Part shown: positions 3,768-21,216 of the stretch, in pieces
How the letters are laid out: each line of letters begins with the position of its first letter
How positions within the stretch are numbered: position 1 is the stretch's first letter
NCBI GenBank assembly: GCA_964591795.1
Contig: CAZQEL010000001.1
Location: 1 to 32,000, forward strand
Reading direction: 5' to 3'
DNA: 32,000 nt
From: an uncultured archaeon
Lineage (GTDB): Archaea > Iainarchaeota > Iainarchaeia > Iainarchaeales > CSSED10-239
The notes under the pieces: generated by a model
The model's input: the letters and a program-made list of their open reading frames with translations, nothing else
What the model was told of the DNA's origin: nothing
Database searches by the model: none
Made by a program: the position numbers and the translations under genes

Positions 3768-4121
3768 TTAAACTGATTTAATTATAATAACTTTCTCAGT
3801 TTTTTCTCTTAATGAATCATAATTTAAATAATGTTCATTAACTTTAATCATTATTTTATTATCACCAGGCTTTATACCTTGGAAAGGATAAATTTCTAAT
3901 TTTTCAGAAATTATTTGATTTGCTTTAATTTCACCAAATCTAAAAGAAATTGATTTTTTAAGTCCGCTTTTATCTAAAGAAATGGAATTATCTAAAACAA
4001 TATCACAACTAATTAATTTTGCCTCAAGACCCATATTTTTAATTTGAATAGTTAATTCAACAGGTTTTTTTTCAGAAATATTTAATCTAAATGGAAATAG
4101 AGAAGTTATAATATTTATCAT
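3768..4121 (-). CDS. Small single-domain CARDB-like beta-sandwich protein with no signal peptide; first gene of the envelope operon
   Basis: 117-aa ORF with a CARDB-like signature (KKPVELTIQIKNMGLEAKLISCDIVLD). A GGTGATG SD lies upstream of the ATG, and a TTTAAATATA box sits ~54 nt upstream. Confidence 0.5.
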   Translation of the reverse strand: MINIITSLFPFRLNISEKKPVELTIQIKNMGLEAKLISCDIVLDNSISLDKSGLKKSISFRFGEIKANQIISEKLEIYPFQGIKPGDNKIMIKVNEHYLNYDSLREKTEKVIIIKSV

Positions 4122-4227: not shown

Positions 4228-5007
4228 ATGAAATTTTTATTAATTAATTCAACTAAAGACATTGCAGCTAATAATTTAACAGAAGAACTATTTAAATCAT
4301 ATAATTTTACTGAAATTAAACCAAATTTATATAAATTACAAATTGATGCTTTAAATGAAATATATTTAAAAAAAATTAATGACATACACATACATACAAA
4401 AAAAGAAAATATATGTAATGATGAAATTGATTTTGACCAAATTATATTTTTATCAAGACATTCAACTTTATCTAAAACAAAATCAAAATGTATGACTGTC
4501 CATGCAATTGGTAATTGGGGAATTGCAGAACTTGGAGGAAATGATTTTACAATTGTAAAAACAGATCCCATATTAATAAGGAGTTTACTTTTAAATTTAA
4601 AAGAAAATAAAAATCCAGAAATAAAACAATACGAAGTAAAACAAGAAGCAACCCATCATGGCCCTTATCTTGAAATACCAACTATTTTTTATGAAATTGG
4701 ATCTATTGATAATGATTGGAAAAATAAGGATGTTTCAAAATATATGATAAGAATTTTAATTGACACTATTAAAAATTATAATAAGAAAAAAATTATACTC
4801 GAACAAAACTGGATTGAAACAGTAGGAGTTGGAGGAAGTCATTATTGTACTAGATTTAATAAACTTACCTTTAATAGAAATAAAAAATATTGTTTTGGAC
4901 ATGTAGTTCCTAGTTATGCAATAAAAAATATTACTCCAGAAATATTAGAAGATGCTAAAAACAAAAGTAATTCTAAAAAAATAATATATGAAGAAGATAT
5001 TATATAA
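4228..5007 (+). CDS. dtdA: D-aminoacyl-tRNA deacylase, archaeal type (DTD2)
   Basis: 259-aa ORF. It is collinear with remembered Pyrococcus DTD2 motifs: SRHS, HAIGNWG..ELGG, EATHHGP, FYEIGS, VGVGGSHY and FGHVVPSYA. A GAGGGG SD lies upstream. Confidence 0.8.
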   Translation: MKFLLINSTKDIAANNLTEELFKSYNFTEIKPNLYKLQIDALNEIYLKKINDIHIHTKKENICNDEIDFDQIIFLSRHSTLSKTKSKCMTVHAIGNWGIAELGGNDFTIVKTDPILIRSLLLNLKENKNPEIKQYEVKQEATHHGPYLEIPTIFYEIGSIDNDWKNKDVSKYMIRILIDTIKNYNKKKIILEQNWIETVGVGGSHYCTRFNKLTFNRNKKYCFGHVVPSYAIKNITPEILEDAKNKSNSKKIIYEEDII

Positions 5008-5021
5008 CTACTTTATATAAT
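4999..5021. terminator. Shared hairpin between the convergent dtdA and DXR-like genes
   Basis: ATTATATAA-CTACT-TTATATAAT is a 9-bp inverted repeat containing both stop codons (TAA at 5005-5007 on the plus strand; TAG at 5008-5010 on the minus strand). Confidence 0.3.
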
Positions 5022-6129
5022 AATCTTCTAAATTACTTTTAATTTTTTGTTCAATTGCACAAACTGAACTTAAATCAGGATATTTATCAAATAAAGATTT
5101 ATCATCTATAATTTTTTTAAGCAAATCATAAATTTTAACCTTTTCTTTAAGTTTTCGATTATATATTAAATTAAGTATAGTTTCAATTGCAATATAATAT
5201 ACAATAGGATAGGAACCACCCTTTTCAATTGCATATAACCCAAGTTCTAAAAATTTTTCTTTACTTAAATCTATTTTTGAAAATGAAATTGAAAATTTTT
5301 TTTGTTTATTAAAAATATCTGATTTTAATTTCATACCAGAATTTAAGAAATAATAATTAAATATACTTTCAAGATTTAAATTTGCTGCAAAAATAACACT
5401 TGTACCATTTATAAAATTAACATCAATATTTGCAAATCTATCTGTTTGTTCATAAAATAAAAAACTATTAGGATGTATATTATAAATATAATTAATTAAA
5501 AATAAATCATTAACAAGCCTGATTTTGTTTAAAGAATAAAATTTTTTAAGATATGACACATAATTTGTATGTTCATTAATACTTATAGCTTTAGAAGTCA
5601 CTTTTTGAGAAAAAAGATTAATTGTATTTATTTTATTAACTGGATTTGATTTTAATAAAAAATCAAGTGAATAAATTGGGTATGAAAATAATTTCAACTT
5701 GATTCCTTTTGATTTTGCTTCATTTACAATTATTTTTCCAGAATATAATAAAGGAGAAGTATTTAATAAAGTAATATCTTTAAATTCATAAATTGCAGAT
5801 AATATTTTTTTAACACTTATAATTCCAGATAATGAAGAAACTACCTCGTCAATCTGATTAGATTTTATAAAATTAGAAAAATTTTCAGCACCACTAAAAA
5901 TATCTACTTTAACTTTTGATTCTATATAGTTAATATCTTTTTTTTCACTTAAAAATATTCTTTTTGGTTTAACCCGATTTACTTGAGTTATAAACAAATC
6001 TAAGTTATCTATTTTAGAATCATAGGATAACCCAAAAATTATAAATTTATTTGAATTATTTAAAAAAAAATCTAAAGCTTCATTACCAAGATCATTATTA
6101 GAACCCAAAATCACTATATTCTTTTTCAT
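5008..6129 (-). CDS. DXR (1-deoxy-D-xylulose-5-phosphate reductoisomerase)-like protein with degenerate cofactor and metal motifs; probably not a functional Dxr
   Basis: 373-aa ORF, collinear with E. coli Dxr as remembered. [20 protein letters not shown] aligns with [55 protein letters not shown] aligns with [59 protein letters not shown] aligns with CLKLAMEAFEQGQ..NAANEITVAAF. The motifs GSTGSIG, LANKES, PVDSEH, GSGGPF, NKGLE and HPQS are all replaced. Confidence 0.5.
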   Translation of the reverse strand: [373 protein letters not shown]

Positions 6130-6176: not shown

Positions 6177-6216
6177 AAAAAATAGAAAAAATAAGTCTTA
6201 TTTAAAAAAAGACTTA
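6177..6216 (-). terminator. Hairpin plus T-run downstream of the basic-protein gene
   Basis: An 8-bp stem (TAAGTCTT / AAGACTTA at 6192-6199 and 6209-6216) is followed on the transcribed strand by TTTTTTCTATTTTT. Confidence 0.4.
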
Positions 6217-6241
6217 CTTTACAATTAAGAATTTAACAAAA

Positions 6242-6454
6242 TTATCTTTTCTTTGCAGATGCTTTTTTCTTAATAACTTTTCTAGCAGGTGCTTTTTTCT
6301 TAATAACTTTTCTAGCAGGTGCTTTTTTCTTAACAACTACTTTTCTAGCAGGTGCTTTTCTCTTAACAACTTTTCTAGCAGGTGCTTTTCTCTTAACAAC
6401 TACTTTTCTAGCAGATGTTTTTTTCTTAACAACTACTTTCTTTTTTACAGCCAT
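6242..6454 (-). CDS. Highly basic repeat protein (KKAPARKVV-type repeats); putative histone-H1-tail-like nucleic-acid-binding protein
   Basis: 70 aa counted from the ATG at 6454 (MAVKKK...), which is preceded by GGAGGG (cctcc at 6461-6465). The ORF-track start at 6478 is a TTG. The protein has 26 K and 8 R out of 70 residues and no acidic residues. It contains five or six copies of K(K/R)KAPARKV(V/I)(V). Confidence 0.65.
   Translation of the reverse strand: MAVKKKVVVKKKTSARKVVVKRKAPARKVVKRKAPARKVVVKKKAPARKVIKKKAPARKVIKKKASAKKR
6261..6416 (-). repeat. In-frame tandem repeat, period 30/33 nt, five units inside the basic-protein CDS
   Basis: Units at 6261-6290 and 6291-6320 are identical (gcttttttcttaataacttttctagcaggt). 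The following units at 6321-6353, 6354-6383 and 6384-6416 differ by a 3-nt indel (tac) and a few substitutions. Confidence 0.9.
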
Positions 6455-6520
6455 GTTTTCCCTCCGATTTTTCTGCAAAAGCAGAATAATAAAATATAAT
6501 AAAATAAATATATGTAAACA

Positions 6521-6770: not shown

Positions 6771-6806
6771 CGAAAAAAAATAAAGAAAATGGATTAATTA
6801 ATCCAT
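6771..6806 (-). terminator. Stop-codon-embedded palindrome plus T-run after fusA
   Basis: ATGGATTAATTAATCCAT (6789-6806) is a perfect 18-nt palindrome that includes the fusA TAA. It is followed on the transcript by TTTCTTTATTTTTTTT. Confidence 0.4.
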
Positions 6807-8996
6807 AAAATATTCAGCTGGTTTTGGATCTGCATCCATACCTTTTCTTTTTCTAATTTCACTGATAGTATCTTTAAGTAAACTTTTTGGTAAAGTTTCA
6901 TATCCAGAATACTCAGCAGTCCACACAGCTCTACCTTGTGTTTCTCCTCTCATTTCTTGAGAGAACCCTATCATTGACTTAACAGGAATCTTACAAATAA
7001 AGATAGAAGAATCTCCTTCTGTTTTAATATCTTCAATTTGTGCTCTTCTTGAAGATAAAACCTTTGAAACAGAACCCATAAAATCTTGAGGAACTGAAAC
7101 AGTTAAGTTTTGCTTAGGTTCTAAAAGAACATAATTACCAGCTAAAACACAAGCATATATTCCTCTTGTAATTGCAGGTAATACTTGAGCAGGACCTCTG
7201 TGTATAGCATCTTCGTGTAAAGTAGTATCTTCTAATGAAACAATTATACCAGATACTTTTTCTTTAGCAACAGGACCTTCATTTGTAGCATCAACAAAAC
7301 CTTCAATAATAAGTTCTCTTACTTCATTTAAGTTTTGTATTCCTTTTGTTCTGTTAATTAATATTGAATGATTATTAACAGCCCAAACATTCTTTGAATC
7401 ATCATTTAAAAGACCAACTTCTTGTAATTTTTTAATTACATCAAGATCTTTATTAGGTCTAATTTTACCATTAAACTTAAATTTTCTAAAGTTTTCAAGC
7501 ATTTCTTTTTCAATAGGAGCTGCACTTAATTTAAACTTATTATGTTTATTTGGTGTTTTTGCTTCAACTTTTGGTGACTCAGTAGTAATTGTTTCATAAT
7601 ATACAACAATTGGTGAAGATACAGTTATTGGAATATTATTATCTTTTTCAATCTTATATTGAGTAATTTCTAAGTGAAGTTCTCCCATACCAGATAAAAG
7701 ATGTTCACCAGTATCTTGATTTAATTCAGCTTTTATATTTGGATCTTCTTTTGAAATATTATGAATTAATTGTATTAGTCTTGGAAGATCTTTTGAATTT
7801 TTAGCTTCAATTGAAATAGTCATTACAGGTTCAACATCAGTCATGAAATCTTCAAATGGAACAATATCGTGACTTGCAATTGTTTGACCAGAGTAAACTT
7901 CTTTAAGACCAATAATACATGCAATATTACCAGCTTTTACTTCTTCTAAAATAACTCTTTCAGGACCTAAATAAATTCCAACATATTGTACTTTTGTTGT
8001 TCTATCAGTTCCTAAAACTTTAAGATCCATTCCTTTCTTTATAGAACCTGAATAAATTCTTCCAGAAGCAATATCACCAGCATGCTTATCTAATACAATA
8101 TCTGTAACCATCATTGAAACTTCTTCTGATTCAGTATTACATTCAAGCATTGCTTTTCCTTCAGGTGTTTGATGATCACCTTTCCAAATAACTGGAATTC
8201 TATATTTTTGAGAAACTCTTGGATTTGGTAAGTGTTTTGCAACCATTCCTAAAAACACTTCTGAAATAGGAATTCTATCTGAAAGTTCTTTTTGTTGTTC
8301 TTTTTCAGCATAATCAATTACATCTTTAAAAGTTACATTATATTTTTTCATTGCAGGAACTGAAAGTGCCCAATTATGAAAACCAGAACCAAAACAAACA
8401 GAACCATCAGCAATTGAAACTTGCCAATCTTTTTTTAATTCATCTGTTGCATTCTTTACAATTAAATTATTAATATCCATTACAACTTTTACAAATTTCT
8501 TTTGCATATCTTCTGGAGTTACATGCATTTCTGTTATCAATCTATCAACTTTATTAATAAAAAGAACAGGTTTTACTCTTTCTCTTAAAGCCTGTCTTAA
8601 AACTGTTTCTGTTTGTGGCATTACACCTTCAACAGCATCAACAACTAAAACAGCTCCATCAACAGCTCTCATAGCTCTAATAACATCACCAGTAAAATCA
8701 ACGTGACCTGGTGTATCAATAATATTTATTAAATATTTTTCTTTATCTATTTCACATGGAACAGAAACATTTGCAGAATTAATAGTAATTCCTCTTTCTT
8801 GCTCTAAAATATATGAATCCATGAAAACTTGTTTACCAGCTAAATCTTTTGACATTAAACCAGCTGTTGCAACTAAATTATCTGTTAAAGTAGATTTACC
8901 ATGATCAATGTGTGCAATAATTGCAATATTTCTAATATTAGTTGTGTTTGACATTAATTTTTCAGCAAGTTCAGCAACTTGTTCTTTTCTTCCCAT
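6798..8996 (-). CDS. fusA: Translation elongation factor 2 (aEF-2)
   Basis: 732-aa ORF with a G1 motif (AHIDHGKST), DTPGH, NKVDR and the diphthamide-site motif HEDAIHRGPAQ. An AGGTGA SD lies upstream. Confidence 0.97.
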   Translation of the reverse strand: MGRKEQVAELAEKLMSNTTNIRNIAIIAHIDHGKSTLTDNLVATAGLMSKDLAGKQVFMDSYILEQERGITINSANVSVPCEIDKEKYLINIIDTPGHVDFTGDVIRAMRAVDGAVLVVDAVEGVMPQTETVLRQALRERVKPVLFINKVDRLITEMHVTPEDMQKKFVKVVMDINNLIVKNATDELKKDWQVSIADGSVCFGSGFHNWALSVPAMKKYNVTFKDVIDYAEKEQQKELSDRIPISEVFLGMVAKHLPNPRVSQKYRIPVIWKGDHQTPEGKAMLECNTESEEVSMMVTDIVLDKHAGDIASGRIYSGSIKKGMDLKVLGTDRTTKVQYVGIYLGPERVILEEVKAGNIACIIGLKEVYSGQTIASHDIVPFEDFMTDVEPVMTISIEAKNSKDLPRLIQLIHNISKEDPNIKAELNQDTGEHLLSGMGELHLEITQYKIEKDNNIPITVSSPIVVYYETITTESPKVEAKTPNKHNKFKLSAAPIEKEMLENFRKFKFNGKIRPNKDLDVIKKLQEVGLLNDDSKNVWAVNNHSILINRTKGIQNLNEVRELIIEGFVDATNEGPVAKEKVSGIIVSLEDTTLHEDAIHRGPAQVLPAITRGIYACVLAGNYVLLEPKQNLTVSVPQDFMGSVSKVLSSRRAQIEDIKTEGDSSIFICKIPVKSMIGFSQEMRGETQGRAVWTAEYSGYETLPKSLLKDTISEIRKRKGMDADPKPAEYFMD

Positions 8997-9174: not shown

Positions 9175-9804
9175 TTATGATTTTTTAGTCATTAAGCAAA
9201 CATAACGTCTTTTGTAGTTATTAGTACCATATCTTAAGGGAATTAGCTTATTAATAATAAAATCCTCTTTAAATGTTTCAATAATTTCTTTCTTTGATAA
9301 AGGATACGAGTACATATTTATTAAAGAATTAAAATAAAATTTTTTATTATTAAAAGTTTTTTCACGCTTATCAAAACAAAAAAGTAAAAATTTACCTTCT
9401 CTATTTAATAATTTAAATAAAGTTTTAGAATATTCTTTTCTTTTTTCAGGTAAGATATTATGAAATAAACCAACATCATATAAAAAATTATATTTATCTT
9501 TTAATAACTCTTTTGAAAAGACATCTGACTGTTTAAAATCCAGATTTTTATTTTTATAAGATTCTTTTGCAAATTTAATAATCTCTTTAGATACATCAAT
9601 TCCAGTTACTTTAAAGCCTTTTTTTGAAAGATAATTAGCAAAATAACCATTTCCACAGCCTAAGTCTAATGTTTTTGAAGAGGTAATCCATTTAGAATCA
9701 ATTATTTCTTTAAACCACTCTGGTATTGTGGTTCTAACCCATGGAAGTTTTTTTAAATTTTTTTTAAAAGAATAAATATCATTCCAATTATTTTCTTTTT
9801 CCAT
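9175..9804 (-). CDS. Class I SAM-dependent methyltransferase
   Basis: 209-aa ORF. Motif I is LDLGCGNGYF, followed by an acidic post-I residue (VTGIDVS). Its ATG lies 2 nt after the stop of the 1276-aa gene, which implies translational coupling. Confidence 0.8.
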   Translation of the reverse strand: MEKENNWNDIYSFKKNLKKLPWVRTTIPEWFKEIIDSKWITSSKTLDLGCGNGYFANYLSKKGFKVTGIDVSKEIIKFAKESYKNKNLDFKQSDVFSKELLKDKYNFLYDVGLFHNILPEKRKEYSKTLFKLLNREGKFLLFCFDKREKTFNNKKFYFNSLINMYSYPLSKKEIIETFKEDFIINKLIPLRYGTNNYKRRYVCLMTKKS

Positions 9805-9806
9805 AT

Positions 9807-12800
9807 TTAATTTAATTTTATAATTTTCACAATACCCTTATTAGCATCAACCTCAATTAAATCTCCATCTTTTAAAACTTTTGTTGCTGTTTTAGTACCA
9901 ATAACACATGGTTTTTTAAGTTCTCTAGAGACAATAGCAGCATGACAAGTTATTCCGCCTTCATCTGTAACAAACGCAGAAGCTTTTTTCATAGCTGGAA
10001 GATAATTAGGCATAGTCATTGCTGCAACCATTATTTCTCCTTTCTTAAAATTACCAATTTGTTTTTGAGAAGTAATTATTCTTACAATACCTTGTACTTT
10101 ACCTTTATAAGCAATTTGTCCACCTATTTCTTTAATATCTAATTTTTGTTTTTCTAAAGTTAAATTTAATTTATCTAATGTATCACTTATATTATCAGTA
10201 TATAGTTTACCTTGATAATAAACAAATCCTTTTTTTCTTTCTTTAATTATATTTAGCATTAATTTTTTATTATTAACAGTTTTAGAAATAATATCATCTG
10301 GAAATACAAATTTGGTATTATTTTTTAAATAAGGAAATTTATTTTCAATGAATTCTTTAAATATAGGTTCTAAACTTTCAGCATATTTTTGAATTTTTTC
10401 TCTTAAAGCTAAAGCTTTTAATTTAATTTTTTTTGAAACATTAAAATTATCTTCAGGCAAAACAAATATTACAGCAACTTCAGCCCAATATGCTCCATAT
10501 AATTTAATTATTTTTTGATATTCAAAAATAGATTTTATTTGTCTACCTTTAAAATATGGCAATAATAAATTAAACTTTTTTAATAAATTAGAAAATATTA
10601 AATATACTAACTTTGGATTACTATTTATATTTGATTCTATAATTTTAAATACAGTAAAAAGCTCTTTATTATCATAATAAACATCCACAAGATCTTTTCC
10701 AGTATAAATAAAAGTTGTATTTTTTAAATCTTTTTTAATTAATTTAATTTTTTTAAAATAATATAAATAACTAAGATACCAAGCATATATTCTAGTTAGA
10801 GAATATTCTCTTGAATGTTCTTTATGTAATTGTGTTTTATATTTATCATCAAAAAATTCCTGTCCACTTAAAGTTATATTTAATTTATTTAAATTTTTAA
10901 AAATATCACCAGTATATAAATTTCCTTGATAATAGACGTACCCTTTTTCTCTTTTAGTAATTAATTTTAATAATTCAATTTTATTATTTACAAGCCCTGA
11001 CCAAATATCATCTGGCAATACAAAATTGCTTTTATTTTTAAGATAAGAATATTTTGATTCAATAAACAAAGATATTGCTTTTTGAATTACAAAATTATAT
11101 TCTTGAGATTCTGCCCGCTTTTTTAATGCAAATTGTTTTAATTTTTCAGAAACTGGTAAAGTTGGAAGAACAGTAACAAGTTGCATATACATCCAATTAT
11201 CAGAACACAAATTTTGAATTTCTTTTAATTCATCTAAATTTTTAATTTTTGAAGTATTTTTTTTAAATCTAATATATAATTGTTTAAATTTATTTAAATT
11301 GGCACTAATTTTTTGTATTACTAATTTAGGGTCTTTAATTGAAAGCTCAATTATTTTTTGAGTAATATTTTGTAATTCAGACAAATCATAATATATTTTT
11401 ACAAGATTTTTATTATCATAAACTGCACAAGTATGATTCATTTTTTCTCCAACAATTGAATAAAATCCATTAGTCATTGAATCTTGAGCAGCACTTAATC
11501 TAAAAAGAGTAAATTCATTAAGTTCTCTTGAAAATAATAACGAAAGATTTTTAATTTTTAATAATGTATTTACTTTATTTATTGTTGTTGTTTTTTTTAA
11601 TTTAGTTATTGATCTTGATTGTGTAATATCTATTTTATTTTTTTCTTTATTTAATATTCTAACAACACCATTATCTGCATCAACTTCTACTAGATCCCCA
11701 TCTTTTAAAATATCAGTAGCTATTTTAGTTCCAATCACACATGGTTTCTTAAGTTCTCTAGAAACAATAGCAGCATGACAAGTAATTCCACCCTCATCAG
11801 TCACAAATGCTGCTGCTTTATACATAGCAGGAAGATAATTAGGCATAGTCATTGCTGTAACTAAAATATCCCCTTTTTTAATTTTATTTAAATCTTTGAT
11901 ATTTAATACAATTTTTACTTTTCCTTTTACCTTTCCATTAAATGCTGATTGTCCTTTAAGTTTATCTTGTTTTTTGATTGTTTTCTCTTCAATTCTTATT
12001 CCTAAATTATCCAAAATTCCCTCAATATTTCCTGTGAAAATTTCACCCCTATAAAAAACAAAACCCTTATTTCTTTCTTTAATTTTTTGTAGCATATTCT
12101 TTTTATTTTTAACTTCTTCAGACCAAACTTCTTCTGGTAAGACAAACTTGGTTTTATCTTTAAGGAATGGATAAAATTTCACTAAAGTTTCTTTGAATAC
12201 ATCCTCTATTGTTTCATTATAATCTTGAATGTCTTTTCTTGCTTTAAGGGCTATATCTTTAATATTTTGTGGTAAAAAGTCCATTCTTGGAACAGCAAAA
12301 ACCATCCCATGAAGTAAATAATATTCTGTATATTTTTCATAAACTTTTTTTAATTCATTCTTTTTCAAAATATGCTTTTTTTCTTTAAAATAAGGAAGAA
12401 GATAATTAAAATCATTATATAATTTTTTTATTAATTTTTCAAAAAATGTTTTGTCTGTTACTTTTTTTGCTATACTTTTAAATAAACCATCCCATGAACT
12501 TTTTGTATAATAAACATTTACCAAATTTCCTCGATAAATTTTGCAAGCATCTTTTACTTTATATCCAAAAATCTTTTCACTTAGCTTCTCATAATTTTCA
12601 TATAAAGAATAAACTCTAAATAAAGAATATTCTCTTGAGTGTTGTTTTATGAAAATTTCTGATATGTTATCTTTTTTATAAATAAATTTGCTTTCTGTTA
12701 AAGTTGTAATTGGTCTACTCTGAGTTATATATATTTTGTTCTTTTCAATAGCCCATTCAATATCTACAGGAAAACCATAATGATTTTCAATTTTCTTAAT

Positions 12801-13637
12801 TAAATTAGAAAGAGATAAAATCTGAGATTTAGAAAGAACTTGTGAACCACCTAATTTTTTAGTTAGTTCCTTCCATTTAGTACCTTTTTTTAAACATCTA
12901 TACATTGCTTTAGATTGTTCACTTATATTTTGCTCCAAGATTTTAAGTGGTTTTTTAGAAACAATATAACTATCAGGTGTTATTGCTCCAGAAACAATTG
13001 CTTCTCCTAACCCATAACCAGCTTCAATAATTAATTGATTATAATCTTCAGTTACTGGATGTACAGAAAAGGCAATTCCAGATTTTTCTGAATTCACCAT
13101 TTTTTGAATAACTACAGCTACTGAAATATATTTATTTTGTAAATTTTTTTCAAATCTATAAAAAATAGCTCTTGAAGTAAATAAAGATCCCCAACATCTC
13201 TTTACATTAAATAATATATTTTTTTCAGTTGTATTAAGATAGGTATCCAACTGTCCAGCCCAAGCAACACTAGCAGAATCTTCTGAAGTGGCTGATGATC
13301 TTACTGCTACAAATTTTGTTTTTAATTTTTTAAAATAAGACAATATATCTTTTGAAAGCTTTTTTGAAATTTCTTTAGAAAGAATTAAATTTTGAATTTC
13401 TTTAGAAGCATTATCAATAGTTTGTACTTTTTTAATATTTACTTTATTTAAAATTAAATTAATTTTTACGTTTAAATTATTTTCTTTAATAAAAATATCA
13501 AAAGCAGAAGATAATATCACAAAACCATTTGGAACAGAAATATCTGAAGAATACATTTCTCCTAAAGAAGCTCCTTTACCACCTGCTTCTTTAACTGAGT
13601 CTTTATTTAAATCTTTAAAAAATTTAATTATAACCAT
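9807..13637 (-). CDS. PEP-utilising-enzyme family multidomain phosphotransferase (PpsA/PPDK N-terminal ATP-grasp plus two swivel phosphohistidine domains plus three helical modules); no PEP/pyruvate TIM-barrel domain
   Basis: 1276-aa ORF. Residues 1-313 resemble the PpsA N-terminal nucleotide-binding domain (GGKGASLGEM, VAVRSSATSEDS, ..YITQSRPIT). Two near-identical mobile His domains carry TDEGGITCHAAIVSRELKKPCVIGT (His621 and His1232). Three paralogous ~225-aa modules occupy residues ~325-555, ~695-925 and ~935-1165. Confidence 0.8.
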   Translation of the reverse strand: MVIIKFFKDLNKDSVKEAGGKGASLGEMYSSDISVPNGFVILSSAFDIFIKENNLNVKINLILNKVNIKKVQTIDNASKEIQNLILSKEISKKLSKDILSYFKKLKTKFVAVRSSATSEDSASVAWAGQLDTYLNTTEKNILFNVKRCWGSLFTSRAIFYRFEKNLQNKYISVAVVIQKMVNSEKSGIAFSVHPVTEDYNQLIIEAGYGLGEAIVSGAITPDSYIVSKKPLKILEQNISEQSKAMYRCLKKGTKWKELTKKLGGSQVLSKSQILSLSNLIKKIENHYGFPVDIEWAIEKNKIYITQSRPITTLTESKFIYKKDNISEIFIKQHSREYSLFRVYSLYENYEKLSEKIFGYKVKDACKIYRGNLVNVYYTKSSWDGLFKSIAKKVTDKTFFEKLIKKLYNDFNYLLPYFKEKKHILKKNELKKVYEKYTEYYLLHGMVFAVPRMDFLPQNIKDIALKARKDIQDYNETIEDVFKETLVKFYPFLKDKTKFVLPEEVWSEEVKNKKNMLQKIKERNKGFVFYRGEIFTGNIEGILDNLGIRIEEKTIKKQDKLKGQSAFNGKVKGKVKIVLNIKDLNKIKKGDILVTAMTMPNYLPAMYKAAAFVTDEGGITCHAAIVSRELKKPCVIGTKIATDILKDGDLVEVDADNGVVRILNKEKNKIDITQSRSITKLKKTTTINKVNTLLKIKNLSLLFSRELNEFTLFRLSAAQDSMTNGFYSIVGEKMNHTCAVYDNKNLVKIYYDLSELQNITQKIIELSIKDPKLVIQKISANLNKFKQLYIRFKKNTSKIKNLDELKEIQNLCSDNWMYMQLVTVLPTLPVSEKLKQFALKKRAESQEYNFVIQKAISLFIESKYSYLKNKSNFVLPDDIWSGLVNNKIELLKLITKREKGYVYYQGNLYTGDIFKNLNKLNITLSGQEFFDDKYKTQLHKEHSREYSLTRIYAWYLSYLYYFKKIKLIKKDLKNTTFIYTGKDLVDVYYDNKELFTVFKIIESNINSNPKLVYLIFSNLLKKFNLLLPYFKGRQIKSIFEYQKIIKLYGAYWAEVAVIFVLPEDNFNVSKKIKLKALALREKIQKYAESLEPIFKEFIENKFPYLKNNTKFVFPDDIISKTVNNKKLMLNIIKERKKGFVYYQGKLYTDNISDTLDKLNLTLEKQKLDIKEIGGQIAYKGKVQGIVRIITSQKQIGNFKKGEIMVAAMTMPNYLPAMKKASAFVTDEGGITCHAAIVSRELKKPCVIGTKTATKVLKDGDLIEVDANKGIVKIIKLN

Positions 13638-16716: not shown

Positions 16717-17880
16717 TTAATTTTCGTCCATTTTCTCTTGTTTTTTAATCATTTTTTTTAAATTTTTAGGATCAAGTGTAAGTCTTACTTGACCAGTTCC
16801 TGCAAGTATTGGTTGACCAACAATTAAATTTTCTATAATTCCTTTAAAGTTTTCTCTTTCTCCAGAAAAAGATGCTGCTAAAAGATGTTTTACAGTTTCT
16901 TCAAATGCAGCTCTTGCAAATGGACTTGCTTTTTCACCAGTAATTCCAGTTCTTACAACACCTTTAACTCTTCCGCCAAGGCACATAAGATCTGCTAATA
17001 CTGCAATGTGTCTTTTATTAATATCAATACCATTACTTTCAAAAGTAAATGAAAGTTCTCTTACAATTGATTCTTTTGCAGCTTCAATTCCAAAAACTTT
17101 ATTTATTTCTAAAATATCATTAGTATGAGTTCTATTAGTATCAATTTCAGGTATTTTTAAAACTTCAGATAAATTAGAACCTTTTGTTGTAATATATTTT
17201 TCACCATTTTCTTCAGCAACAACTACAAGTTCAATACGTTTTACACCAAATAATGGAATTTTATTCCATTTAATTATTGCTTTTCTAATATTAAAAAGAG
17301 GTGTATCTTTATCAAATGTGAAATTAACACCATTTTTATTAGGTGTAAATCTTTTAGAAATATAAACATCAGCAATTTTATCATAAATTAATGTCATAGT
17401 TTCTTCTTTATCTAAATTAAGTTCGTTTAATTTATCATGATCTAAAACAAAAGAAACTATTTTTTTTTCAAAATCTTCTTGAAAATCACCAATTGTTGCA
17501 ACTTTAATATCAATTAAGCTTTTTGCAAATTTATTTAATTTTTTATCATTTGCAAAAATATCTTTTTTAAGATAAATTTTCATAGAAGGAAATTTAGATG
17601 AAAGTCTACCATCTACAATCTCAATAACTCTTTGAATTCCTTGACCAACAGAAACTTCTAAAGAACCAGCATAGTGCTTTGTTCTTAAAGTTAACTGAGT
17701 TCCAGGTTCACCAATTGATTGTGCAGCAATAAGTCCAATAGCGTCTCCAGGTGTAACTAATGATTCATTATATCTTCTTGACACAATTTCCATTAACTTT
17801 TTACCCTTAGCATCACTATAACTTTTCTTTTTTGAATAGCTTTTTATTCTTTCAACAACGTTTTTTGGTAAATCTCTCAT
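16717..17880 (-). CDS. rpoA2: DNA-directed RNA polymerase subunit A''
   Basis: 387-aa ORF with GDAIGLIAAQSIGEPGTQLTLRTKHYAG and a conserved C-terminal block (RAAFEETVKHLLAASFSGERE...GQPILAGTG). Confidence 0.96.
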   Translation of the reverse strand: MRDLPKNVVERIKSYSKKKSYSDAKGKKLMEIVSRRYNESLVTPGDAIGLIAAQSIGEPGTQLTLRTKHYAGSLEVSVGQGIQRVIEIVDGRLSSKFPSMKIYLKKDIFANDKKLNKFAKSLIDIKVATIGDFQEDFEKKIVSFVLDHDKLNELNLDKEETMTLIYDKIADVYISKRFTPNKNGVNFTFDKDTPLFNIRKAIIKWNKIPLFGVKRIELVVVAEENGEKYITTKGSNLSEVLKIPEIDTNRTHTNDILEINKVFGIEAAKESIVRELSFTFESNGIDINKRHIAVLADLMCLGGRVKGVVRTGITGEKASPFARAAFEETVKHLLAASFSGERENFKGIIENLIVGQPILAGTGQVRLTLDPKNLKKMIKKQEKMDEN

Positions 17881-17896
17881 AGTCTTTCACATTTTT

Positions 17897-18517
17897 TTAA
17901 ATTACTTTTTTACAAACCTTATTTAATAAATCATTATTTATTAAATTATTGAAATAATCCACTTCTGCTTTAGTTATTCTATATTTATTATAAAACTCAA
18001 TCTCTTCTTCAGTAGCTCCTTCTATATTATTTTTTGAAGGTCTATTTTTATCTTCCTTACAATCATACATCTCTAAAAAGGGACTATCATAACTAATTAT
18101 ATAATTTTCTATAATTGATATTGAACTATTATCATCTTCCCACATACTTTTATATTCTTCATAAGTTAAATTTAAATATCTTGTATTTTTTCCACCAATT
18201 AAACCACCAACATCTATAATATATCCTTGATTTAATTTAAAAGAAGGTAATCTGTACTGTGCATAATTTACTTGCTGATTTAAATTATTATCTTTAGTAT
18301 CTATTGATCCAGGAATAATTACTGGTGAAGAATATGAAGTTATATTATTATCTTTAGTACCTACAGGAATATTTAAAGAATAATCTTTATCTGTTTTAAA
18401 AATAAATGGTCCTGGTTCAGTGACATATGCTTTATTTTGAGATTCTCTTAACAAAAATAAAACAACTACAATTATTACCACTAAAATTATTATTGTTATT
18501 AAACTATTTTTTTTCAT
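17897..18517 (-). CDS. Hypothetical membrane-anchored protein inserted between rpoA1 and rpoA2
   Basis: 206-aa ORF with an N-terminal TM anchor (LITIIILVVIIVVVLFLL). It contains an internal short repeat (GTKDNNITSY / DTKDNNLNQQ). Its stop lies 16 nt before the rpoA2 ATG. Confidence 0.55.
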   Translation of the reverse strand: MKKNSLITIIILVVIIVVVLFLLRESQNKAYVTEPGPFIFKTDKDYSLNIPVGTKDNNITSYSSPVIIPGSIDTKDNNLNQQVNYAQYRLPSFKLNQGYIIDVGGLIGGKNTRYLNLTYEEYKSMWEDDNSSISIIENYIISYDSPFLEMYDCKEDKNRPSKNNIEGATEEEIEFYNKYRITKAEVDYFNNLINNDLLNKVCKKVI

Positions 18518-18630: not shown

Positions 18631-21216
18631 CTATTCGTGGAAGAAATTAATATTTTTCCCAAGATATGCTTTATCAGGAGAAAGTCCATCATCACCATAA
18701 ACAAACTGAATAACTTGGCCATCAGCACTTTTAACAGATAAATCATCTTGAACAACAAGATCTTTAAGTGCGTTAGAAAGTCTTCTATAAAGATATCCAG
18801 ATACTTTTGTGGAAACACCAGTATCAATTTCACCTTGTCTTCCACCAATTGAGTGCACAAAATATTCTTTTGGTTGCAAACCATCATAAAAATTACTTTT
18901 AACAAATCCATAATCCATTAATGAATTAGAACCTGCAATACTAGAACTTAAAAGTCTATTTTTAAAACCATTCTTAGCTCTTCCAGCTCTTACAGTTACC
19001 TGTCCCCAAAGACCAATAATATTAACAACATTTAATAATTTTCCTCTAGATCCACCAACACTTGAAAGCATAGTTGTATTATTATTTGAAACTTTACGTT
19101 TATCATACATTTCATTAAATTTTAAAACTAATATCTCATCAGAAACACTATCTTTAACTTTACCAGCTGCAGACATCATTTCAAATTCAAAAGTTTCATT
19201 AAGAGTTTTACCTGAAACTAAAGGTAAAGTTTTATTTTCAAACTTTTTAACTATTGAGTTTGTATTTGATACAAGTTCTTTTATTTTTTTATCAATATCT
19301 TTTTTTAAAAATTCAGGTGTCTTATATTCATCAAGACCAATTGTTAATCCTTTCTTTGAAAGAGTGTAAAAAACTAACTTTGATAATTTATAATAAAAAT
19401 CAGATAAAAAATCCTTAGGATAATGACGAGTAAGAACATCAATTAAGTTCTTAGCTGAAGTTGCTCTTTCATCAAAAACACCAGATAATAGTTTTCCTTT
19501 TTCAATTTTTAAATAACAATCATATTTTTCAATATCTTTTTTAGTAACTTTTCCTTTTATTTTTTTAATAATTGTATACATTTTATTTTCGTATTCAATA
19601 TTTAAATCATTTGGAAGTATTTGACTAAAAATTAATTTACCAGAATATTGACCTCTTCCTCTATCAGCTGATGGAAGTTCAGTAATTCCGATTGAATAAA
19701 GCATTTCCATTGTTTCTTTTTTACTAAATTCAGTATTTTTTAATGTTAATAAAAATGCTCCAGAAATAAGATCTTCACCAGGAATTATTATTGGTTTACC
19801 ATGTCTCATACTAGAAATATGATTAGTTACCATTAAAAGATTTTTAATTTCAGCAATTGATGATTCACTTTGTGGTGCGTGTATTTGCATTTCATCACCA
19901 TCAAAATCCGCATTATAGGGAGGACATGAAATTGGATTTAATCTAAAAGTTTTACCTGGTAAAACTTTTACTTTATGTCCCATAATTGATGCTCTATGCA
20001 AAGTCGGTTGTCTGTTGAATATTACAAGATCTCCATCAACCATTTTTCTTTTTGCAATAAGCCCATCTTCAAGTGCATCAATAATTTCTTGCTTATTTGT
20101 TTCTGTAATTATTTTCTTTCTATTTTTTTTGGTTATTAAATATTTTATTTTATCTTGCAAAATATATTCTTTGATCTTTGACATATTCCAAAGAGTTATT
20201 CTTTCTGAAACTGTTAATGTATCTGCAACTTCTTGAGGAACACCAAGTTCATCAATTGCAATATCTGTAGATGGAGATATGGTTGATCTTGCAGCAGAAT
20301 TTACTCTTTTTCCAATTAAATTATATCTAAATCTTCCTTTTTTACCTTTAAGTCTTTGAGCAAGAGTATTTAATGCTCTTCCTGATCTGTGCTTTGCAGG
20401 TGGAACCCCAGCTGTATTATTATCAAAATATGTAGTTACATTATATTGTAAAAGATCCCATAGGTCTTCAATAATAATTTGTGGAGCACCAGCATTCATA
20501 TTCTCATGAAGTCTGTTATTAATTCTAATAATATTTAAAAGCATATGTGTTAAATCATTTTCAGCAGTAACAACGTTTTCTAAAGACAAAGAAGGTCTCA
20601 TTGATACTGGTGGAACTGGTAAAACATTTAAAATAAACCATTGAGGTCTAAGTTTATCTGAATATCCAAACAAAAATAAATCTGTATCATCAATTTTTAA
20701 AATCCAATCTAAAATATCAGAAGGATAAAGTCTTTCTCCATCAACAAAGAAATTAGTTGGTTTATCAAGTAAAACTTTTACAACATCTGATTTACAATGA
20801 GGACATTTTTTAAGAGTTTTAGATGCATTAATAATAAATTTACTAATCTTATTAGGATTATCAGAATACCTCATAAGTTCAGTTCTATCTTCATCTTCTA
20901 AAAGAAGTTTACCACATTCTTTACAAGTACATTGTAAAATATGGTTAATTTTTTCAGTAAACTTAGGATGCATAACTGGTCTTGTTAATTCAATATGACC
21001 AAAATGACCAGGACAATCTCTCATACCATGACCACAAGTTTTACATCTAAGACCAGGAGAAATAACACCTAAATGCAAATCCATTACTCCTCTTTCTATA
21101 GGATATCCATCTTTATCATAAGTATCTGCTCTAGATAGTTCTACAGCTGACATTTTTCTAATAAGTTCTGGACTTAATACATTAAACTCAATTGATTTTA
21201 TTTTCTTAATACTCAT
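18631..21216 (-). CDS. rpoA1: DNA-directed RNA polymerase subunit A'
   Basis: 861-aa ORF with Zn motifs (CKTCGHGMRDCPGHFGHIEL; CKECG...CPHC) and the catalytic motif NADFDGDEMQIH. Confidence 0.98.
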   Translation of the reverse strand: MSIKKIKSIEFNVLSPELIRKMSAVELSRADTYDKDGYPIERGVMDLHLGVISPGLRCKTCGHGMRDCPGHFGHIELTRPVMHPKFTEKINHILQCTCKECGKLLLEDEDRTELMRYSDNPNKISKFIINASKTLKKCPHCKSDVVKVLLDKPTNFFVDGERLYPSDILDWILKIDDTDLFLFGYSDKLRPQWFILNVLPVPPVSMRPSLSLENVVTAENDLTHMLLNIIRINNRLHENMNAGAPQIIIEDLWDLLQYNVTTYFDNNTAGVPPAKHRSGRALNTLAQRLKGKKGRFRYNLIGKRVNSAARSTISPSTDIAIDELGVPQEVADTLTVSERITLWNMSKIKEYILQDKIKYLITKKNRKKIITETNKQEIIDALEDGLIAKRKMVDGDLVIFNRQPTLHRASIMGHKVKVLPGKTFRLNPISCPPYNADFDGDEMQIHAPQSESSIAEIKNLLMVTNHISSMRHGKPIIIPGEDLISGAFLLTLKNTEFSKKETMEMLYSIGITELPSADRGRGQYSGKLIFSQILPNDLNIEYENKMYTIIKKIKGKVTKKDIEKYDCYLKIEKGKLLSGVFDERATSAKNLIDVLTRHYPKDFLSDFYYKLSKLVFYTLSKKGLTIGLDEYKTPEFLKKDIDKKIKELVSNTNSIVKKFENKTLPLVSGKTLNETFEFEMMSAAGKVKDSVSDEILVLKFNEMYDKRKVSNNNTTMLSSVGGSRGKLLNVVNIIGLWGQVTVRAGRAKNGFKNRLLSSSIAGSNSLMDYGFVKSNFYDGLQPKEYFVHSIGGRQGEIDTGVSTKVSGYLYRRLSNALKDLVVQDDLSVKSADGQVIQFVYGDDGLSPDKAYLGKNINFFHE

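Follow-up and report, generated by a model that had tools for sequence, protein, structure and literature searches.

A probable DXR-derived pseudoenzyme or repurposed protein kept under purifying selection in Forterrea-like Iainarchaeota

The window, a 32,000-nucleotide stretch of contig CAZQEL010000001.1 (assembly GCA_964591795.1) from an uncultured archaeon of the Iainarchaeota, has a G+C content of ~24% and a clearly archaeal gene content. It encodes a split RpoB, RpoA'/A'', RpoH, L30e/L7Ae, S12, S7 and elongation factor 2 (EF-2), as well as an ATP-dependent DNA ligase, an archaeal-type prolyl-tRNA synthetase, a KaiC-like ATPase and the archaeal D-aminoacyl-tRNA deacylase DtdA. Downstream of EF-2 lies an open reading frame (ORF) for a protein related to DXR, the reductoisomerase that makes 2-C-methyl-D-erythritol 4-phosphate (MEP) from DXP, or 1-deoxy-D-xylulose 5-phosphate (features in Table 1). 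A reading made from the letters of the sequence, hereafter the sequence-only reading, had proposed that this protein retains the DXR fold but not the chemistry. The analysis below supports that proposal: the fold is kept, the motifs are replaced throughout the family and the gene is under purifying selection. The protein is best read as a DXR-derived pseudoenzyme or repurposed protein.

The window protein is homologous to class I DXR (DXR-I, IspC) from end to end, and the homology is far beyond chance. Among Pfam models, the DXR N-terminal domain PF02670 matches residues 5–131 (E = 1.7e-14), the C-terminal domain PF13288 matches weakly (E = 3e-4, below the gathering score) and the catalytic middle domain PF08436 gives no match even at E up to 10. 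Across the archaeal family to which the protein belongs, PF02670 is detected in 33 of 33 members, PF13288 in 18 and PF08436 in none (0/33). The top PDB sequence match is the Staphylococcus schleiferi DXR (6MH4; E = 1.4e-11, residues 3–326). Alignment of the family with canonical DXR by hhalign, in three set-ups, gave E values of 4.7e-27, 4.7e-43 and 5.4e-50 over 353–363 columns, with probabilities of 99.7–100%. The Dxr equivalogs of NCBIfam score the window protein at 57–73 bits against cut-offs of 316–515 (71 bits against 315.7 for TIGR00243 and 73 against 461 for NF009114). The window protein thus falls short of the curated cut-offs for DXR-I, and in its family the three Pfam domains are not all detected.

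The AlphaFold2 model built from the family alignment is confident (pLDDT 90.7, pTM 0.89), and when it was searched with Foldseek, the top 50 PDB matches were all DXR (TM 0.82, E = 1.6e-24, 14–18% identity). A model of P0204, which represents the family's most divergent branch, is 37% identical and lacks a precomputed Pfam match, is similar (pLDDT 86.8, TM 0.83 to DXR). In these models the three-domain DXR architecture is kept, with a predicted Rossmann N-domain, a central α/β domain and a C-terminal helical bundle, and the hhalign alignments, the Foldseek matches and the P0204 model agree on a full-length, collinear DXR fold. The sequence-only reading had claimed collinearity with bacterial Dxr along most of the protein by comparison with E. 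coli Dxr, and two of the checks that it suggested, profile searches and structure prediction, bear this out.

The DXR reaction depends on NADPH, on a divalent metal bound by D150, E152 and E231, on a phosphate pocket and on a flap that closes. We mapped these elements by aligning a 33-member profile of the family to a profile of canonical sequences with E. coli Dxr at its head; E. coli numbering was verified by the 100% identity of the Dxr sequence used to PDB 1K5H_A, and the functional roles of its residues follow the published DXR structures. Residue counts below refer to the 33 members unless given out of 34. The strings quoted by the sequence-only reading are all present at their residues (GSNNDLG 9–15, LLNTSP 121–126, YPIYSLD 150–156, FSQKVT 173–178, VNDLF 206–210 and YEQT 226–229), and the profile alignments show the glycine-rich loop, D150 and E152 replaced across the family.

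In the N-domain, the glycine-rich loop GSTGSIG has indeed become GSNNDLG. Its first glycine, G8, is kept as G9 and its last, G14, as G15 (G28 S5); T10 is replaced by N11 (N27 D5 Q1) and the middle glycine, G11, by N12 (N18 T9 S5 R1). Distant members carry GSDTxxG or the glycine-free LASQRKKS, and the Asp, or the lack of glycines, argues against canonical dinucleotide binding. At the end of β2, G36 corresponds to D37 (D in 27/33), and N38 is kept as N42. The replacement of LANKES by LLNTSP was also read correctly: N124 is kept as N or D at position 123, whereas K125 has become T124 (T or S in 25 of 33 members) and E126 has become S125 (mostly S, also A or D). G131 and many core hydrophobic residues are likewise retained from DXR.

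Two points of the sequence-only reading need correction, both at the metal site. It had equated PVDSEH with YPIYSLD; the loss of D150 and E152 stands, but the register was 2–3 residues off, the match in the profile alignments being L147-F-S-Y-P-I152. Thus, D150 corresponds to S149 (S22 T11, that is, S or T in 33/33), S151 to Y150 (Y26 H2 L2 and others), E152 to P151 (P20 Q5 and others including T and S, acidic in 0/33) and H153 to I152, which is hydrophobic across the family. Glu231, said to have been lost, is matched in all three profile alignments by D208, where 29/33 members have D or E, so an acidic residue probably survives as the third metal ligand. Two of the three ligands of the D150/E152/E231 triad are nevertheless replaced.

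The phosphate pocket and flap are also altered. The region of SGGPF and S186, opposite Q175, is variable and Lys-rich, in agreement with the earlier claim that GSGGPF had been replaced. The flap (H209–M214, with H209, W212 and M214) falls within a segment ~10 residues shorter than in E. coli Dxr, and the AlphaFold2 model places a helix (190–200), a two-residue turn and a second helix (203–216) around the missing flap. Between E. coli positions 186 and 222 the alignment register varies from run to run, and the safe statement for this stretch is that the flap and the SGGPF loop are not conserved. N227 and K228 are lost, and S222 is perhaps kept as S199, in a region of unstable register. Further on, H257 is replaced by N234 (N or S across the family) and M276 by L253 (I or L).

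Overall, of the 109 near-invariant columns of canonical DXR, only 15 persist in 80% or more of the family. The canonical motifs are common outside the family, in GxxGxxG (131/135 canonical-side sequences), ANKE (123/135), DSEH (114/135), SGG (129/135) and NK[GAV]xE (124/135), and each is found in 0/34 family members. The family lacks the canonical NADPH loop as well as the phosphate-site, flap, K125 and H257 features of DXR. Several positions of the former cleft have instead settled on new residues: S/T149 (33/33), Y153 (29/33), S154 (30/33), S199 (28/33), D/E208 (29/33) and Q228 (30/33). Every member is without K125, H257, the SGGPF loop, the flap and two of the metal ligands, and the glycine that contacts the pyrophosphate has given way to a residue with a side chain; we therefore regard MEP synthesis as practically excluded and infer from the residue map that the DXP-to-MEP chemistry has been lost.

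The gene is intact, encoding 370–398 residues, in ~30 loci. Identity to the window protein falls from 61% to 37% over a range in which EF-2 falls from 90% to 72% and DtdA from 65% to 47%. The ratio of nonsynonymous to synonymous substitution rates (dN/dS, Nei–Gojobori) is 0.13 for the unsaturated pair L001 and L008 (dS 0.36) and 0.12–0.24 for more distant pairs. The low dN/dS and the intact reading frame indicate that the gene is functional rather than a pseudogene. A homologue of an enzyme family that has lost essential residues and is under purifying selection is what is operationally called a pseudoenzyme, and this is what the family presents.

Conservation within the family is highest in the N-domain, and in residues 101–160 above all. 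The columns of the former functional sites are not conserved above background (p = 0.15; substrate pocket, p = 0.51), in a comparison of low power (33 sequences, 30–41 columns), and the equivalents of SGGPF (175–179) and of the flap are among the least conserved stretches. A cleft relaxed in this manner would be as expected of a pseudoenzyme; the test itself is compatible with a new active site as well as with none.

The family is small, monophyletic and confined to Forterrea-like Iainarchaeota, a DPANN lineage. A word-indexed search returned 26 close relatives (41–99% identity, matching PF02670 only), with canonical DXRs following after a gap. When 1.84 billion representatives were searched exhaustively with a profile, ~10 full-length clusters at 50% identity came out, together with fragments; family members score 245–556 bits and the next sequences at most 105 bits. 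In a neighbour-joining tree of 169 sequences the family forms a clean clade (34/34, no intruders), on a stem ~10 times the median internal branch and with no specific canonical sister. In the set of GTDB species representatives, the gene is confined to metagenome-assembled genomes (MAGs) named Ca. Iainarchaeum or 'ainarchaeum', to MAGs listed as unclassified 'archaeon' and to Ca. Forterrea multitransposorum, which is placed in the Iainarchaeota (formerly Diapherotrites) and has a closed genome of 839,632 bp (CP045477.1) carrying member L009, 58% identical to the window protein. The genomes that keep the gene measure 0.7–0.85 Mb and have shed most of their metabolism. Members are annotated as hypothetical proteins at NCBI and several as DXR at JGI; the latter label is misleading.

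Other full-length degenerate DXR homologues, each lacking several catalytic motifs, were also found: P0113, P0145, P0127, P0195, P0077, P0114, P0159 and P0064. P0113 is from a Bacteroidota MAG and is annotated as hypothetical, P0145 is from Edaphocola sp. and is annotated as DXR, and P0127 and P0195 are metagenome clusters of 12 and 33 members, the former including Tara marine sources. These uncharacterised sequences fall outside the archaeal clade and have other substitution patterns, which suggests that DXR may have been eroded or repurposed independently more than once.

To our knowledge, DXR-I is essentially bacterial, and the canonical sequences nearest to the family come from scattered bacteria (a Lachnospiraceae MAG, an Aerophobetes MAG and the Staphylococcus structure). 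Bacterial dxr genes have entered other DPANN lineages (PMC8421398, PMC6107057). Given this distribution, the bacterial nearest relatives and the DPANN precedents, the parsimonious history is that the gene was acquired horizontally and then lost its catalytic function, and the ancestor is inferred to have been a bacterial-type dxr gained by horizontal transfer. A named donor was considered and rejected: the neighbour-joining tree offers no specific sister, and compositional attraction among low-G+C sequences is likely.

No gene of the MEP or mevalonate pathway is present in the 32-kb window or in the ~20-kb flanks of at least 10 relatives, and the earlier remark that no other MEP gene lies nearby thus extends to these relatives. 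According to its published description (PMC5905446), the closed Ca. Forterrea genome lacks lipid, nucleotide and vitamin synthesis. The accompanying statement that archaea normally lack the MEP pathway is not universal for DPANN: Woesearchaeota have a genuine, bacterially derived pathway, for which dxs, ispD/F, ispE, ispG and ispH are reported alongside dxr genes with Firmicutes relatives (PMC8421398).

The surroundings of the gene are constant. Every locus long enough shows the same order of RNA polymerase genes, L30e, S12, S7, EF-2, a Lys-rich ORF, the DXR-like gene and the convergent dtdA, and this synteny places the gene in the stable core of the chromosome. The spacing between the DXR-like gene and dtdA is 0–30 bp across loci, or an overlap of 4–14 bp; examples of zero spacing or overlap are the window (5007/5008), L001 (11125–11128), L030 (11100–11113) and L031 (1292–1297). 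With convergent 3' ends that abut or overlap, the two transcripts necessarily either overlap or end within the opposite gene.

Table 1 Features of the DXR-like locus in the window
Feature	Coordinates	Strand	Basis and remarks
Conserved 117-residue protein (hyp117)	3768..4121	minus	Adjoins dtdA in most loci
dtdA (archaeal D-aminoacyl-tRNA deacylase)	4228..5007	plus	PF04414, E = 2.9e-50; convergent with the DXR-like gene, zero spacer; invariant neighbour
DXR-like ('pseudo-DXR') gene	5008..6129	minus	373 residues plus stop codon, ATG start; ORF list
C-terminal helical domain, residues 288–373	5011..5268	minus	Weak PF13288; AlphaFold2 helices 292–303, 307–323, 333–341 and 353–371
Central (formerly catalytic) α/β domain, residues 150–252	5374..5682	minus	PF08436 blind to this domain
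S199-LNKIR204-LVN-D208, remodelled helix equivalent to E. coli S222...N227-K228...E231	5506..5535	minus	Profile alignments, AlphaFold2
S149-Y-P-I-Y-S154, in place of D150-S-E-H-N-A	5668..5685	minus	Profile alignment; predicted helix from residue 150, as in DXR
N-terminal Rossmann-type domain, residues 1–149 (E. coli Dxr 1–150)	5683..6129	minus	PF02670 at residues 5–131; boundaries by homology to E. coli Dxr
LLNTSP (residues 121–126), in place of LANKES	5752..5769	minus	Profile alignment
Degenerate glycine-rich loop G9-S-N-N-D-L-G15, in place of GSTGSIG	6085..6105	minus	Profile alignment, motif counts
Small tandem-repeat protein rich in Lys; next gene upstream of the DXR-like gene	6242..6478	minus	Likely true start ATG 6454; GGAGG at 6461–6465
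EF-2	6798..8996	minus	Invariant upstream neighbour; end of the RNA polymerase/S12/S7/EF-2 backbone

The protein hyp117 has no Pfam or PDB sequence match; its counterparts in relatives have 117–123 residues, and it is absent from the lineage of L005, L006 and L013. The Lys-rich protein has an isoelectric point (pI) of 12, KKAPARKVV repeats and a weak match to the Pfam HC2/histone-H1-like family (E = 5e-4), and could be a nucleoid- or ribosome-associated polycation. Its length varies, from ~100 residues in L018 to 79 in L001 and L005 and 56–61 in L003 and L030; in L014 and L026 it is reduced to ~10–12 residues (MVAKKKAAKKKK, MVKKKAKKKK). L014 also carries a direct duplication of ~300 bp upstream of the DXR-like gene (~9230–9530 and 9640–9930), spanning the Lys-rich micro-ORF and the AT-rich region upstream of it. 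A terminator-like 12-bp hairpin with a U-run after the Lys-rich ORF (6188–6220, minus strand) was discarded, being no better than in shuffled sequences (z = −1.44).

Beyond dtdA and hyp117, several relatives have a cluster for the synthesis and salvage of thymidylate (dTMP), at 12467–16834 in L002, 6915–10080 in L003, 12417–13707 in L014 and 12424–14198 in L030, with genes for nucleoside deoxyribosyltransferase, Tmk, SHMT, ThyA, DHFR, dCMP deaminase and dCTP deaminase/dUTPase; the window and L001 have MMPL-family transporter genes in its place. Elsewhere in the window, the minus strand at 9807–13637 encodes a protein of 1276 residues, which relatives share (1110 residues in L002), with a PPDK_N ATP-grasp domain at residues 16–317 and matches to the swivel domain of phosphoenolpyruvate (PEP) utilizers at residues 1197–1268; a PEP/pyruvate-binding domain was not detected, and the ~880 residues in between have no assignment. 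Finally, a 206-residue ORF without a Pfam match (17897–18517, minus strand) lies between rpoA' (18631–21216) and rpoA'' (16717–17880). These two genes are adjacent in L001 and L030 (20–48 bp apart), so the ORF looks like an insertion.

That the protein is a selected derivative of DXR, and no longer a DXR, we consider highly probable. Regarding what it does, we favour a non-redox, probably non-catalytic binding protein, with a probability of roughly 0.5–0.55. According to this model, an ancestor of these Iainarchaeota would have acquired a bacterial-type dxr horizontally, the rest of the MEP pathway would have been lost (or would never have been present), and the DXR-like protein would have been kept for another job and passed on vertically without leaving its place between EF-2 and the convergent dtdA. 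It would work by binding, without redox chemistry and probably without catalysis, using the conserved N-domain face (101–160) and the lidless cleft (S/T149, Y150, Y153, S154, S199, R/K204, D/E208 and Q228). Its target, in a housekeeping setting, would be either a partner protein or a small ligand of phosphorylated or nucleotide type.

Several observations weigh against this model. The new cleft residues are fixed rather than drifting, which would also fit a rebuilt active site. The loop keeps G8 and G14, and N38 is kept as well. In classical Rossmann enzymes an Asp at the end of β2 favours the binding of NAD(H) or adenosine, and the change from G36 to D37 in 27/33 members therefore makes some nucleotide binding possible. 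The low power of the conservation test, noted above, limits the support to be drawn from a relaxed cleft. Moreover, the conserved synteny reflects a single vertically inherited lineage and so provides no independent functional link.

Much of this evidence would suit a repurposed enzyme, whose remodelled cleft binds a nucleotide cofactor or phosphorylated substrate (for example, a sugar phosphate from the archaea's own nucleotide-salvage/RuBisCO metabolism) and runs a different reaction, metal-independent or differently coordinated. The eight conserved cleft residues listed above, the retention of G9, G15 and N42, D37 at the end of β2 and the strong purifying selection are all consistent with it, as is the location of the best-conserved block, 101–160, in loops that line the nicotinamide/substrate side of the DXR N-domain. 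However, the cleft positions as a set are conserved no more than background, the half of the pocket formed by the SGGPF loop and the flap is variable or deleted, the middle of the glycine loop is N, T, S or R, with an Asp or no glycines in distant members, and no metabolic gene nearby points to a pathway. We hold this alternative to be possible but tentative. An unlikely and more speculative variant is that the DXR scaffold has been rebuilt in these host-dependent Iainarchaeota into a new enzyme or metabolite sensor (for a nucleotide or phosphosugar) that uses the lidless cleft, or into a housekeeping factor tied to its constant neighbours for translation and tRNA proofreading, EF-2 and dtdA; if true, the DXR fold would for the first time have a characterised role outside the MEP pathway. 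Attempts to narrow the function in other ways were unproductive. Gene context yields no metabolic partner, the block being universal but of a single lineage. The basic pI of the family (median 8.8, against 6.2 for DXR) was set aside as a sign that the protein binds nucleic acids, since DtdA and hyp117, encoded by the same AT-rich genome, are just as basic; for this reason it does not separate a binder from an enzyme either. On inspection, the spacing of the new motifs does not fit SDR-like S-Y-K or SGNH-like GDS readings.

Two further explanations were weighed and rejected. A genuine, highly divergent DXR that still makes MEP would agree with the JGI annotation of several members, with the full-length fold and the acidic residue at the E231 position, and with the real MEP pathway of some DPANN archaea (Woesearchaeota). 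We reject it on the residue map and the curated cut-offs, and rate it very improbable: D150 and E152 are replaced in 33/33 members, K125, S186, H257 and H209/W212/M214 are lost with the flap deleted, PF08436 is undetectable and scores lie far under the equivalog cut-offs, the neighbourhoods contain no other MEP genes and lipid synthesis is reported as absent from the closed Forterrea genome. A functionless relic of an acquired dxr, decaying towards a pseudogene, would account for the eroded motifs and for an evolution somewhat faster than that of DtdA (37–61% identity against 47–65%). Yet the frame has stayed open in ~30 loci, up to divergences at which EF-2 is 72% identical, dN/dS is 0.12–0.24, many positions are invariant, and the gene is retained in 0.7–0.85 Mb genomes stripped of most metabolism; on dN/dS and the intact ORF we reject this explanation too, and find it scarcely credible.

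Comparison with known systems sets the family apart. It is homologous to and collinear with canonical DXR-I (E. coli 1K5H, S. schleiferi 6MH4) and shares its three-domain fold, but it lacks the middle glycine, K125/E126, D150, E152, the SGGPF/S186 loop, the H209–M214 flap, N227/K228 and H257, is archaeal, is ~14–18% identical to solved DXRs and has no MEP context. DXR-II, or DRL (Brucella-type, PDB 3UPY), is active in MEP synthesis, is related to homoserine dehydrogenase and resembles DXR-I only in its Rossmann fold (PMC3847144). It is an active analogue that shares the label 'DXR-like' and a Rossmann N-domain with the present family, whereas the family described here is a true DXR-I homologue without the catalytic residues; the Pfam, NCBIfam and PDB searches gave no match to the DRL/homoserine-dehydrogenase family, all significant matches being to DXR-I. 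The canonical dxr genes of Woesearchaeota and other DPANN archaea (Castelle and Banfield 2018, as cited in PMC8421398; PMC6107057) are likewise DPANN DXR genes and provide the precedent for transfer from bacteria. Unlike the woesearchaeal dxr with its MEP partners, the gene described here is an orphan whose motifs are eroded, and it belongs to another phylum. Rossmann dehydrogenase scaffolds kept for binding or regulation are known from NmrA and HSCARG, which belong to an unrelated, SDR-like (short-chain dehydrogenase/reductase-like) family and still bind NAD(P); the likeness to the pseudo-DXR is conceptual only, as no link in sequence or structure emerged from the searches above. We found no described DXR-I-derived pseudoenzyme or catalytically eroded DXR-I family in the searchable literature, and the family appears to be undescribed.

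Counting this gene as an MEP enzyme would wrongly suggest that isoprenoid precursors are synthesized in DPANN archaea that appear to draw their lipids from hosts. Its retention in genomes that have shed almost all metabolism implies a useful role. The family agrees with the entry of bacterial MEP genes into DPANN lineages, widens that picture and, together with the degenerate bacterial homologues, suggests that DXR may have been repurposed repeatedly. It offers a clean example of an enzyme fold of central metabolism that appears to have lost its chemistry and is kept under selection.

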